Positions 39,328 through 43,219 of a stretch of DNA of 64,000 bases are shown here, one piece after another. The stretch comes from Candidatus Heimdallarchaeota archaeon (GTDB lineage: Archaea > Asgardarchaeota > Heimdallarchaeia > Heimdallarchaeales > Heimdallarchaeaceae): contig JABCTC010000009.1 in assembly GCA_018238545.1 (NCBI GenBank), positions 1 through 64,000 of the forward strand. Reading direction: 5' to 3'. The position numbers and the translations under genes are program-made. Below the pieces are notes generated by a model. It made no database searches, had not been told where the DNA came from, and was given only the letters and a program-made list of their open reading frames with translations. Position 1 is the first letter of the stretch; each line of letters opens with the position of its first letter.

Positions 39328-40008
39328 TCACTTTTGAATCTTTAATTGCCACTCGTAAATAGCTTCGACAATATCAGCTTTTGTTGGTAGATCTTCTTGA
39401 TTTGTTTTCTTAAGCAATTTACAGAATTTGTCGATTTCATAGAAAACAGAGCCCGATATACCTATGTTCATAAGATTATCCTTAGTTTTTTGCAGAACTT
39501 CTATTATGTCTGTTGCATTTTCTAAATTAATTCTTGAAATTGTACCAACCATTTCTTTTAGTTTAGTTAGCTCTTCTTCTGGATTCAAGCTTATAGTGAC
39601 ACTTGTTGTAAATCCTTGTTCAATAACCCCTAATACTTTCTTTTCTCCTTCTTCCAGACTTCCAACAACGTTGTTTTTATAATAATAGTTCACTAATCTA
39701 ACTGCTAATTGACGTAATCCTTGTTCAAGATCTTTTTCATCTAAATCAGGGATATTATGTAGTAAACCCATTCTGATTAGAATCAGGTCTCTATTCTTCT
39801 TTGCATATGTCATTTCTTGTTCTGTGATTTCTTTAATATCGAAAAGACGTTTAACTAAAGAGGAGAATGTATCGAGGTCCATGTGTATAATATCACCACG
39901 GGTTAGAAAAGGCTTAATCTTTTCTATAATTAATTTCCATAGAGGGTCTTTTTCTTCCTCTTTCTCATCCTCAAAAACTTCTACTTCTTCACTGTTACTA
40001 TTATCCAT
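39328..40008 (-). CDS. Hypothetical helical protein
   Basis: 226-aa ORF 4 bp upstream of the next gene. Confidence 0.7.
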   Translation of the reverse strand: MDNSNSEEVEVFEDEKEEEKDPLWKLIIEKIKPFLTRGDIIHMDLDTFSSLVKRLFDIKEITEQEMTYAKKNRDLILIRMGLLHNIPDLDEKDLEQGLRQLAVRLVNYYYKNNVVGSLEEGEKKVLGVIEQGFTTSVTISLNPEEELTKLKEMVGTISRINLENATDIIEVLQKTKDNLMNIGISGSVFYEIDKFCKLLKKTNQEDLPTKADIVEAIYEWQLKIQK

Positions 40009-40107: not shown

Positions 40108-40722
40108 ATGAATGTTTATCAAGTAATAAGAAAAAGATTGAAACAGGTTAAAGAACCTTACAAATTCCTCAATGGTGATGTTTACCTTGTTGTGACACCA
40201 ACACACATCTGGATATGGTTAGGCTCAAAATCGTATTGTGATGACAAAGCCGTTGGTGCTTGGACAGCAAAGGTAATTGAAGAAGACAACAAATCTTTAG
40301 AAATAGATACAGTAATGGATGGAGATGAACCACAAGAATTCAAAGATCTTATCACATTCGAAGTTTTAGAAGGAGATACTCCTGGTTTCCTCAAACATTT
40401 TGATAAGAAGGTAGATATAGATTACAAATTACTAAAAATCCAACAAGATTCTGATGGGTTGATTAAAACTTCAGAAGTTCCTATCAAGAAGAAATCCTTT
40501 AAATCTGGAGATAGTTTTGTTTTAGACGCCTGGGACGAACTTTATGTTTGGATAGGTAAAAAATCGCAAGTTAAAGAAAAGTATGAAGCAGGTAGAATTT
40601 CTAGAGCACTAGATGTTGAAAGAAAACGAACTCCTGTTATCTATACAATGGATGAAGGTCAAGAACCAAAAGGTTTCTGGGATATTGTTGAAAGGATTCA
40701 AAAAGAAGATCCCAAAAAATAA
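40108..40722 (+). CDS. Two-domain gelsolin-family protein (Asgard 2DGel-like actin regulator)
   Basis: Two repeats: FLNGDVYLV..IWIWLGSKS..K..G...DGDEPQEF and FKSGDSFVLD..LYVWIGKKS..EK..A...EGQEPKGFW. Confidence 0.92.
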   Translation: MNVYQVIRKRLKQVKEPYKFLNGDVYLVVTPTHIWIWLGSKSYCDDKAVGAWTAKVIEEDNKSLEIDTVMDGDEPQEFKDLITFEVLEGDTPGFLKHFDKKVDIDYKLLKIQQDSDGLIKTSEVPIKKKSFKSGDSFVLDAWDELYVWIGKKSQVKEKYEAGRISRALDVERKRTPVIYTMDEGQEPKGFWDIVERIQKEDPKK

Positions 40723-40806: not shown

Positions 40807-41442
40807 ATGTCATTTGAAGATGAATCTCCTGAATTATCAAGAGCAGAAACTGTTGAATCTTTAACGAGAGACCAACAAATCCTTCTGTACACCATAGACT
40901 ATTTAACAAAGTGGATGGTTAGCGATGAACATATCTTGAAAAATGAAGGAGACAAAGTTTGGATTAAAGAGCTACCATTGTGGGCAATTATGTACTATCA
41001 AATTACTCATGGATCTTATGAGACTTATGATTACGCCCCTACACCCATACAATTTTTTGGAAGAAGCAGTTTTACTATAAATCTTTCCTATGAAGGTGTT
41101 GATGATGTTGAAGATTTACGTGAATTGGATATCCTAGAAAAGATTCGTCTCAGTACTTCTCAACATGGCTTTGTTACAGCTTATAGAATTACAGAAATAG
41201 GAGATAAATATCTAAAAAAAATTCCTAAAGATGTCATTGATGAAGTTGAAACTCTCTTTTTCTGTGAATGTTGTCAAAAACGAATGCATTTCTACATGAA
41301 TATGGGTGATAATCCATCAGTTTTAATGGATTGCCCCGATTGTGATGAATCTGATGTTCATTTAAATTTTCTTGAAAGCGAAGATGTAAGTTATGTTTCA
41401 AAACCTTACTTTCTGAAAATAAGTGATTTGTTGAAGAGGTGA
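40807..41442 (+). CDS. Conserved hypothetical protein with wHTH-like core and C-terminal zinc finger
   Basis: YDYAP, S.EG.DDVEDLRE, TAYRITEIG (wing-like), CECC...CPDC. Confidence 0.7.
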   Translation: MSFEDESPELSRAETVESLTRDQQILLYTIDYLTKWMVSDEHILKNEGDKVWIKELPLWAIMYYQITHGSYETYDYAPTPIQFFGRSSFTINLSYEGVDDVEDLRELDILEKIRLSTSQHGFVTAYRITEIGDKYLKKIPKDVIDEVETLFFCECCQKRMHFYMNMGDNPSVLMDCPDCDESDVHLNFLESEDVSYVSKPYFLKISDLLKR

Positions 41443-41446
41443 TTAT

Positions 41447-43219
41447 GTGAGTGAAGAATTAGCAGGAAACATAAAAGATGAATTAGCAGAAATCATTCAT
41501 ATTAAAGACCCAAAAATTTTCGTTATAGAGTGGCTTCCCTTTGATTCTAACCAATTAAGAGAACTGAATAAAAAAATGGATATAGAAAAAGGAGCACATA
41601 AGACTCTTCTTACTGGTTTAATTGATAGGCAACCGAATGTACCTATTTTTCAATCAAAAGGTGCTCATACAAAAGTATTCGTTGAAGATTATGAACTTGA
41701 TAGTTTTGTTAACCTTCAAGCAATCATCGATTTGCCTGAAGAAGAAGACATTGTACAAGTTGAAGAGATGGCTATTTTTGTCTCGAGAGATGGTTTCATC
41801 ATTTATTCGTTGGAATTAGCTGAAATTGAAAACTTGAATACATACATGTCTATAGATAAAATAACTCGAGTTGTTGCAGATTTATGTCAAGATAGTTCTG
41901 TAGTGATTGATAGCCTTTTGACTGAATTCCAAAGGAATTTTATTGATATTATATTTGGAGATCCCATCCATCGTCCAAAAACTATCTGCTATGTTGGAGA
42001 TGATATTAAAATCCGACATGAGGACATACAAGATTACTATGACGGGGAAGAGTGTGAGATTGAACTAAGCCAATTATTAGGTGAAGGACATGAACCTTTC
42101 CAAGTAGGTAATAATCTTTTCTTTAAAGGTTCAAGGGGTACATGTGCAATTGTAGATACTTTTGATAAAGAGACAGAATACCAAATAATTTTCTGGGGCA
42201 TTCAACATGCTATGAACAACTTTGTAGATAATTTTATGTCTAGAATTTGGGAATTATATGATCAAACTAAACACGTGAAAAAGATTGTTGATGAAGCTGT
42301 TGCAGGCAACACTGACGCTTTAAATACTGTTACAGAAGAAATTACAGTAATCACTAGCACAATTAGTCTAGTTGGACAAATTAAAGAATTTCTTAAAGAT
42401 TCTAGTAAAGATTTGTTAGAAATTTATGGCAAAAATAAAAAATGTAATCTGGATGGCTTTTATGAGGTTGAAAATTCCTTGAAATCTTCACAAAGAAGAA
42501 TTCTGGAATCTGAAAAAATCATTTCTGGTTTATTAACTGAGCTTGATGGATTACGAAATTATGTTGCAACGCTTTCAGAGTTACAAATGAGAAAGATGTC
42601 TAAAGTTATGACAAAAAACACAAAAAGTATGAATGAAGTACTTCAAGCTAATACTAGAACAAGTGAAGCAATCGATATGATTGAATTGATTTTGGCAGGC
42701 AGTATTATCTTAGAAATTTTTGCTTTTGCGGTAGGTGAGATTACATCTGAACAGACATTTTTTGGTTCAATTTTAAGTGGACAAGGATTTGGGAAGGATC
42801 AGTGGATAACTCTAGCTCTTTTACTAATCAGTGTTTTTGCTTGGATAACGATAGTTGTTCTATTAAGAAGAAGTAAGAAGAAAATGGAGATAGAAGCTTT
42901 GCAAGATTTCTATGTAACACTGTCTGTGAATAAAAAAATAGATGTAACTAAAATGGAAGAATATATCTCAAATAGATCAGTTCAGATAAAAAATGTTGAA
43001 TATGATAAGGAAAATATCATCATCTCATGTGTTTGGGGTGGTGATGATGACCCAAATCTGCTAGGGAAAAACATCGAAAAAGTAAGCGTTAGTTATAATG
43101 AAACTAACAGCTTGTTGTTAACGTTAGAGATTGAAACTTCTGAATTAGATATTAAACAAGATAAACTTCTAGGTTATGTGTTCAATGATCTTGAAGCAAA
43201 AGGGGTATTTATTAAGTAA
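41447..43219 (+). CDS. Hypothetical membrane protein with CorA-like topology
   Basis: Large soluble domain, long coiled coil, two TM helices, soluble C-domain; 4 bp from the upstream gene. Confidence 0.7.
   Translation: MSEELAGNIKDELAEIIHIKDPKIFVIEWLPFDSNQLRELNKKMDIEKGAHKTLLTGLIDRQPNVPIFQSKGAHTKVFVEDYELDSFVNLQAIIDLPEEEDIVQVEEMAIFVSRDGFIIYSLELAEIENLNTYMSIDKITRVVADLCQDSSVVIDSLLTEFQRNFIDIIFGDPIHRPKTICYVGDDIKIRHEDIQDYYDGEECEIELSQLLGEGHEPFQVGNNLFFKGSRGTCAIVDTFDKETEYQIIFWGIQHAMNNFVDNFMSRIWELYDQTKHVKKIVDEAVAGNTDALNTVTEEITVITSTISLVGQIKEFLKDSSKDLLEIYGKNKKCNLDGFYEVENSLKSSQRRILESEKIISGLLTELDGLRNYVATLSELQMRKMSKVMTKNTKSMNEVLQANTRTSEAIDMIELILAGSIILEIFAFAVGEITSEQTFFGSILSGQGFGKDQWITLALLLISVFAWITIVVLLRRSKKKMEIEALQDFYVTLSVNKKIDVTKMEEYISNRSVQIKNVEYDKENIIISCVWGGDDDPNLLGKNIEKVSVSYNETNSLLLTLEIETSELDIKQDKLLGYVFNDLEAKGVFIK

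Follow-up and report, generated by a model that had tools for sequence, protein, structure and literature searches.

A jointly inherited and repeatedly lost gene pair of a Heimdallarchaeaceae archaeon encodes a winged-helix protein and a divergent CorA-fold membrane protein

The CorA, Mrs2, ZntB and CmaX proteins (the MIT or 2-TM-GxN proteins, PF01544) are known from structures of Thermotoga maritima (4i0u), Methanocaldococcus jannaschii (4ev6), Escherichia coli (5n77) and human MRS2 (8tup), and the roles of residues D253, M291, M302, T305 and G309 of T. maritima CorA have been described (PMC12933068). There is a precedent for a ligand-activated CorA-fold effector in the type III CRISPR-associated CorA of Bacteroides fragilis, which binds SAM-AMP (PMC10600005). 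Panacea antitoxins, which carry a GPV signature, neutralise membrane-depolarising toxins (PMC8832971), and the C-terminal domain of DarG has been linked to DUF4065/Panacea (PMC13621843). Here we describe two adjacent genes in a 64,000-nucleotide stretch of DNA (the window; contig JABCTC010000009.1, positions 1 to 64,000) from a Candidatus (Ca.) Heimdallarchaeota archaeon of the family Heimdallarchaeaceae. Gene A encodes a winged-helix protein and gene B a membrane protein with two transmembrane (TM) helices, whose closest known systems are the CorA, Mrs2, ZntB and CmaX proteins. A and B make up one accessory unit that is inherited, fused and, repeatedly, lost as a whole, and B belongs to the CorA/Mrs2/ZntB structural superfamily as a divergent member.

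Of 300 Asgard genomes, 40 contained B and 39 contained A, both being found in 37 of the 42 carriers. A lay directly upstream of B at 50 of 55 loci (some genomes being counted twice), and the other five were contig edges or a deletion. The spacing between A and B in relatives was mostly −4 to +4 nt; in the window it is exactly 4 nt, as stated in a preliminary description made from the sequence alone, and the Shine-Dalgarno (SD)-like GAGGTGAT overlapping the end of gene A, followed by this short spacer, suggests translational coupling of the two genes. With the two domains also fused in 70 of 71 extended homologues (see below), the co-occurrence that this description called for was borne out. 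Loss of the genes was joint as well. Nine genomes of the window's genus, one of them with a gelsolin 93% identical to that of the window, had the same locus, bounded by gelsolin and ATP-binding cassette (ABC) genes, and lacked both A and B, and a tree of flanking genes within the genus showed at least four changes in pair presence. At one locus (L012:351-2065) gelsolin stands directly before the 3′ part of B, both gene A and the initial 237 codons of B being gone, which represents either a deletion in progress or a misassembly. In the complete genome of Ca. Heimdallarchaeum endolithica (L010:5998-6420), B has an in-frame TAG at the invariant glutamine Q104, and is either a pseudogene or affected by a sequence error. 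This joint absence at the same locus, the repeated changes in presence and the possibly decayed copies lead us to regard the module as an accessory unit that has been lost repeatedly. Its accessory nature also follows from the fact that close relatives drop the pair cleanly and that the host genome has a canonical CorA of its own, with the GMN motif, on a separate contig (C77). The idea that B replaces a missing CorA found no support as a rule: some carriers, the host among them, have a CorA, and others, including two complete genomes, have no CorA match.

Since A and B are fused in homologues, their association was likely beforehand. A predicted complex of A and B scored 0.55, compared with 0.00 for the best control, with runs agreeing on at least 88% of contacts and a partner pLDDT of at least 72. 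In the benchmark for this score the pass mark was reached by 58 of 80 solved complexes and by 2 of 110 mismatches; scores of 0.60 or less, the range of A and B, were reached by only seven of the 80 solved complexes but by both passing mismatches. The heterocomplex modelling proposed in the preliminary description thus separated the pair from its controls and offers weak support for a complex, in a score range shared with mismatched pairs. No solved structure of a similar complex was found.

Both proteins belong to families that are already named. B carries PF27230 (MJ1566_N) as a precomputed domain, with an ESM match of 0.95. The assignment of A to PF27231 (MJ1567) is transitive: A and its Asgard relatives were made into a profile, and that profile scored 150–180 bits on the N-termini of the best PF27231-annotated fusions. 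Both names come from a newer precomputed annotation (Pfam 38), the 2025 Pfam copy that we used locally having no PF27231 model; searches of that copy, of NCBIfam and of PDB sequences with A and B returned only coiled-coil and zinc-ribbon noise. The families are named after the uncharacterised M. jannaschii proteins MJ1566 and MJ1567, which are presumably encoded side by side, to judge from their locus tags. Our literature search found no description of MJ1566, MJ1567 or the pair, and no function for either family.

A profile search with B yielded 977 clusters at 50% identity, 267 of them at an E-value of 1e-30 or better. At least 150 residues preceded the B region in 71 of the best 148 new matches, and an A domain was found there in 70 of the 71; all 120 matches listed by a search with the fusion profile carried PF27231 and PF27230. 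An earlier single-sequence search for longer homologues of A had found none, a failure of sensitivity that the profile search later made good. Split A/B pairs occur across Asgard and other archaeal-looking contigs, the nearest named homologues of gene B being from Ca. Heimdallarchaeaceae. Named fusions include bacterial ones from Ca. Wallbacteria and Riflebacteria and eukaryotic ones from Chromosphaera, Mantoniella, Cymbomonas, Nonionella, Phytophthora, Pythium, Aphanomyces, Achlya, Plasmopara, Tribonema, Mallomonas, Guillardia and Baffinella, so that the carriers include oomycetes, ochrophytes, cryptophytes, prasinophytes and one ichthyosporean. This agrees with the statement, in the preliminary description, that some protists have similar motifs joined in one polypeptide. 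Fusions from different eukaryotic lineages are 40–70% identical. No relatives of the module were found in the viral contigs searched. Among single cases, two tandem copies of gene A precede one short B at L107:75-1441, and five fusions (P0050, P0228, P0248, P0280 and P0303) have a ubiquitin-like domain in addition (PF27687 or PF00240/PF11976). The label 'WD repeat-containing protein 35' was discarded as a functional clue, as an 844-aa protein so labelled has no WD domain. The mislabel probably stems from oomycete gene models such as P0135 (Globisporangium splendens KAF1331198.1), which places true WDR35/IFT121 domains ahead of the family protein; this model has probably merged adjacent genes, a real fusion being the less likely reading.

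To place these copies relative to one another we used trees of the B region, which were quick LG+G4 trees with no mixture model and with many rows lacking taxonomy; P0171 was omitted from the second tree because of its long branch. The fusions fall within one clade (support 90–93), where a eukaryote-dominated group (support 98) lies among fused bacterial sequences, and the Heimdallarchaeia branch apart from that group. Forcing the eukaryotes together with Heimdallarchaeia was rejected by the approximately unbiased (AU) test (p 0.0006, for a group named after the tree had been seen). An inheritance of the eukaryotic copies from the Heimdallarchaeial lineage is not supported by these trees. The family shared by archaea and eukaryotes that had been proposed is therefore real in that eukaryotic homologues exist, but the eukaryotic copies group with bacterial fusions. 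Nor is it unrecognised: it is common to archaea, bacteria and eukaryotes, but both of its parts are already in Pfam 38, without a function. Three fusions on bacterial-looking contigs (L098:8001-10373, P0210 and P0236) are nested inside the eukaryote-dominated clade, a possible case of transfer from a eukaryote to a bacterium. At L113, an A-domain gene lies beside a B that branches near the fusions.

The CorA-like fold of B, which the preliminary description had proposed, was recovered by structure and by profile. The AlphaFold2 (AF2) model (pLDDT 77.8) consists of the cytosolic α/β domain, helices at 241–285 and 289–329, a continuous stalk–TM1 helix at 341–429, TM2 and a C-terminal α/β domain, with hydrophobic segments at about 408–431 and 452–475; the two TM helices, the long stalk and the extra C-terminal soluble domain read from the sequence are all present. 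In a Foldseek search with B, the top 50 PDB matches were all CorA, ZntB, CmaX or Mrs2 (best E-value 2e-4). VIA-align gave E. coli CorA 5n77 as the best natural match (Z 12.0, root-mean-square deviation (rmsd) 4.4 Å, 146 residues aligned), with Campylobacter jejuni CorA at Z 9.5 (rmsd 2.1, 126 aligned) and human MRS2 at Z 9.6 (rmsd 12.0, covering 162–482). When a 100-sequence profile of B was aligned by HHalign with 32 Asgard CorAs, the result was 92.7% over 274 colinear columns; nine of ten reversed or shuffled decoys stayed under 1% and one reached 46%. Neither B nor 27 of its relatives matched the CorA hidden Markov model (HMM) PF01544, and the only match in the host genome was the separate gene on C77. 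In the ESM Atlas, models of a shape related to B include 375–395 aa proteins of Patescibacteria and Bacillota (TM-score 0.71–0.78 by target) and the MJ0711_N family (0.59), and the set of unstudied CorA-like families is therefore wider than the present pair.

The residue register of B was set through a profile alignment to T. maritima CorA. E354 of B (codon 42506-42508) aligns with D253, of the M1 Mg2+ site, and is D or E in 270 of 279 homologues. I412 and I415 align with the gate residues M291 and L294, and E423 and A426 with the pore-facing M302 and T305; in the family, position 423 is D or E in 70% and position 426 is D in 75%, and an acid stands at one or the other in 265 of 279 homologues. 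G430-x-[WY] aligns with G309-I-Y311. The GMN/GxN filter is absent from B: its slot (433–435) reads TSE and is unconserved, and a GxN occurs in the loop of only one of the 279 homologues. The preliminary description had VGE (at 429) where CorA has GMN; VGE is there and GMN is gone, but G430 corresponds to G309 of CorA and the GMN slot lies 3–4 residues downstream. Conservation of B peaks in the cytosolic domain, with at least 16 polar positions at 90% or above, and is lower in the pore loop; over the two proteins together, it is this domain and A that are most conserved. The near-invariant polar residues of the segment 14–240 (E28, P31, N35, Q104, E106, G116, D137, R141, D145, D149, Q162, R176, K178, E206 and Q209) make up a candidate ligand- or partner-binding site. 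The EWLPFDSNQ motif noted at first reading begins at residue 28 and is conserved throughout the family.

Protein A has the winged-helix and zinc-finger character first ascribed to it, the latter as a four-cysteine (C4) zinc ribbon, and the motifs then quoted, WIKELPL (52), YDYAP (74), SYEG (94), DDVEDLRE (99) and EDVSYVSKPY (192), are all in place and conserved family-wide. In its model (pLDDT 88.4) a winged helix with an inserted β-hairpin is followed by the zinc ribbon and then by a tail that is conserved. Archaea and some bacterial fusions keep the ribbon cysteines and most other fusions have lost them, for which reason the ribbon is probably structural; W52, DY-P, N92, E96 and EDVSY are kept in fusions despite the cysteine loss. 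The helix in the position of DNA recognition is acidic (DDVEDLRE). From this helix, and from a conservation pattern kept in fusions, we infer that A binds protein rather than DNA.

The best structural match of A in both searches was the toxin-binding C-terminal domain of DarG (7yk3 chains B/D; Foldseek E-value 5e-3). VIA-align against 7yk3 gave Z 9.9 with 142 residues aligned and an rmsd of 6.0, ORC/Cdc6 winged helices being tied within 1 Z; PadR/MarR/TubR-like neighbours followed at Z 7–8. HHalign of A with Panacea-like proteins gave 78–81%, a shallow PadR control reaching 53%, and YAP stood where those proteins have the GP motif; the top ESM feature match of A, to be taken as a lead only, was a cluster with SocA_Panacea in 16% of its members (score 0.89). 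None of 69 A members matched the HMM of PF13274 (Panacea), the GPV signature being replaced by YAP. A kinship of A with DarG and Panacea is thus a weak lead and not a membership. Among other Panacea-related genes seen, a genuine Panacea antitoxin gene overlaps a 150-aa toxin-like gene on contig C27 of the host genome (L052:774-1867), and a conserved Heimdallarchaeaceae family of about 315 aa (L056, L058, L059 and L065-L067) joins a Panacea/YwgA-like N-terminal domain to an unassigned C-terminal half.

The features of the locus are collected in the table. The host genome (3.63 Mb) has A and B as single copies, a search for paralogues being negative, and promoter and terminator scans stayed at chance level. 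An ABC ATPase/permease operon lies downstream of gene B. Upstream, a gelsolin gene directly precedes the pair in most genus-level relatives, with two genes inserted between them at one locus (L003). The pair occurs with no adjacent gelsolin in Ca. Heimdallarchaeum and most other families; no gelsolin is near the module in the non-Asgard archaea and bacteria that carry it, and the fusions have no gelsolin family among their listed domains. A different, 1DGelX-like gelsolin (7c2f, E-value 2e-13) lies divergent from A and about 220 bp upstream of it at L036:3942-4658 and L038:3938-4594, that is, in 2 of 11 Thorarchaeota-type carriers and in 2 of about 18 Asgard contexts; by a rough post-hoc estimate the chance of such a second adjacency is a few percent. 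Since congeneric relatives retain gelsolin where the pair has been lost, we consider the link lineage-specific and mostly incidental. The synteny check therefore lent the suggested tie to gelsolin weak support at best: in nine genomes of the genus gelsolin stands without A and B, and most carriers lack the neighbour, but a second gelsolin type is found beside the module in two Thorarchaeota-type genomes. A conserved 226-aa protein (39328-40008, minus strand), divergent from gelsolin and with a paralogue on contig C43, remains with gelsolin where the pair is lost; compared with truncated 1DGelX-like proteins, it gave no match.

Table. Coordinates in the window of the gene pair, its protein domains and the adjoining gelsolin gene
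Feature	Coordinates	Strand	Details
Gelsolin, two-repeat (2DGel type); context, outside the module	40108..40722	+	PF00626, E-value 3e-24; ends 84 nt upstream of gene A
Gene A	40807..41442	+	ATG 40807 to TGA 41442, 211 aa; MJ1567 family (PF27231)
Winged-helix core of A, about residues 19-150	40861..41256	+	Near-invariant W52, D75-Y76-x-P78, N92, E96
C4 zinc ribbon of A	41263..41343	+	C153/C156...C176/C179
EDVSY motif of A	41380..41394	+	E192 96%, V194 93%, Y196 99%
SD-like GAGGTGAT and spacer	41436..41446	+	GAGGTGAT at 41436-41443 overlaps the stop of gene A; then 4-nt gap
Gene B	41447..43219	+	GTG 41447 to TAA 43219, 590 aa; MJ1566_N family (PF27230); divergent CorA-fold two-TM membrane protein
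Enlarged cytosolic α/β domain of B, about residues 14-240	41486..42166	+	Conservation profile
Two willow-helix equivalents, then long stalk of B	42167..42667	+	AF2 model and alignment; stalk about 20 residues longer than that of CorA
TM1 and GMN slot of B	42668..42751	+	Profile alignment to CorA; no GMN
TM2 of B, then basic cluster RRSKKK	42800..42883	+	Cluster placed as KKKKW of CorA
Extra C-terminal cytosolic α/β domain of B, about residues 488-584	42902..43216	+	AF2 model; no Pfam match; not in CorA

About half of our confidence goes to a reading of the module as an accessory cation channel of CorA fold that filters with carboxylates and opens from the cytosolic side, with A as an obligatory subunit; its channel activity is itself a prediction. 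B would oligomerise as CorA does, probably in five copies, with TM1 lining a pore that a hydrophobic gate at I412/I415 could close. Carboxylate rings at 423/426 may stand in for GMN, and the pore would then conduct cations with none of the Mg2+ selectivity of CorA, be they Ca2+, other divalent ions or monovalent ions. Opening might be controlled from the cytosol through the D253-type stalk acid and the conserved polar pocket, and A would dock on or near that pocket as a protein-binding gate or sensor and not as a transcription factor. Several observations weigh against such a channel. SPX domains and generic helical bundles are nearly equal to CorA in VIA-align (Z 8–11), and whole-chain comparison of B with CorA gives low TM-scores (0.2 by query, rmsd 11–25 Å), which we attribute to the much larger size of B and a different stalk angle. 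The register of TM1 comes from one profile alignment with a 20-residue insertion in the stalk; D89, the partner residue in the M1 site, has no clearly conserved counterpart (D155 of B 47%, D167 52%); the window's own B has Ala and not Asp at 426; and the invariant polar residues are equally compatible with an enzyme site. Going further, one may tentatively, and with some doubt, imagine an old CorA-fold family of all three domains of life in which carboxylate rings took the place of the Mg2+ filter and gating passed to an antitoxin-like winged-helix subunit, serving as an unrecognised Ca2+ or other cation channel in protists, oomycetes and algae among them, or as a slowly evolving stress or immune pore.

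The likeness of A to antitoxins raises the main alternative, one that we think unlikely, in which the module acts in toxin–antitoxin or abortive-infection defence: B would be a depolarising pore, A an antitoxin of the Panacea/DarG-C type holding it shut until a trigger arrives (a viral protein, proteolysis or a second messenger), and the fusions self-contained sensor-effectors. Such a module would fit the top structural match of A to the DarG C-terminal domain and its HHalign and ESM leads to Panacea, the membrane-depolarising toxins that Panacea antitoxins counter (PMC8832971), the position of A upstream of B, and a patchy distribution with at least four presence changes within the genus and a nonsense codon at Q104 in a complete genome. 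However, the DarG match is tied with ORC/Cdc6 winged helices, PF13274 and GPV are both missing, PADLOC gave only isolated weak matches in neighbourhoods that are housekeeping and not defence islands, and the genes are single-copy, diverge slowly between eukaryotic lineages and were not found in viral contigs. It is less probable still that B is a non-conducting CorA scaffold, anchoring in the membrane a ligand-binding or catalytic complex whose site is built from A and the invariant polar residues of the cytosolic domain of B. SPX domains bind inositol pyrophosphates, and they match the helical part of B at Z 10–11; the filter motif is lost, and the most conserved positions lie in the cytosolic part, the pore loop being less conserved. 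The acids of TM1, G418/G430 and the retained hydrophobic gate positions are nevertheless hard to square with a mere anchor, and no enzyme fold was found.

Two further explanations strike us as very improbable. B may be a Ca2+ channel functionally coupled to the Ca2+-regulated gelsolin and the Asgard actin cytoskeleton, as the gelsolin upstream in most genus relatives, the independent 1DGelX-like adjacency and an acidic pore suited to Ca2+ would have it, but the nine same-genus genomes with gelsolin only, and the pairs elsewhere with no adjacent gelsolin, speak against this coupling. Slightly less credible is a membrane sensor that sequesters A as a winged-helix transcription regulator and releases it to bind DNA: the zinc ribbon and the PadR/MarR/TubR-like neighbours (Z 7–8) would suit a regulator, yet the recognition-position helix is strongly acidic, bacteria and eukaryotes have A covalently joined to the membrane protein, and no conserved target genes flank the pair. 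If B is instead the gated cation channel that we favour, it would be a pore of CorA fold whose filter differs and whose second subunit is obligatory. Such a pore would illustrate how ion selectivity changes on the CorA scaffold and would be a candidate cation channel for lineages with poorly known ion signalling. Either way, oomycetes, ochrophytes, cryptophytes, prasinophytes and an ichthyosporean have a highly conserved membrane protein of no known function that frequently bears the wrong name 'WD repeat protein 35'. In archaea the split form is small and its parts can be expressed singly, which makes the channel and toxin–antitoxin models directly testable.

With CorA and its relatives, B shares the cytosolic α/β domain, two willow-type helices, a stalk running into TM1, a short loop, TM2 and a basic cluster, as well as the acid at the D253 position, G-x-[YW] ahead of the filter slot and the hydrophobic gate positions. 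It differs from them in the missing GMN/GxN and PF01544 match, the acidic pore-facing positions of TM1, a larger N-terminal domain with invariant polar residues, a stalk longer by about 20 residues, an extra C-terminal domain and an obligatory winged-helix partner. The CRISPR-associated CorA effector is likewise a CorA-fold membrane protein with its conserved residues clustered on the cytosolic side and an accessory partner gene, but the partner of B is another protein, and in the neighbourhoods examined no cas genes and no NrN or SAM-lyase partner were seen, the PADLOC matches being isolated and weak. Panacea proteins (SocA/DUF4065, PF13274) and the DarG C-terminal domain may resemble A in their winged-helix variant and its order of elements, and share with it a gene placed upstream of that for a membrane protein. 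By contrast, A has YAP, an inserted hairpin, the zinc ribbon and the EDVSY tail, shows no HMM match, and has one fixed partner where Panacea has many toxins. The arrangement closest to that of the window is the PF27231/PF27230 pair itself, in which PF27231 stands directly upstream of PF27230, either split or fused: short archaeal PF27230 members (460–510 aa) lack the C-terminal domain that the long B of the window has, and the present locus is one such pair.

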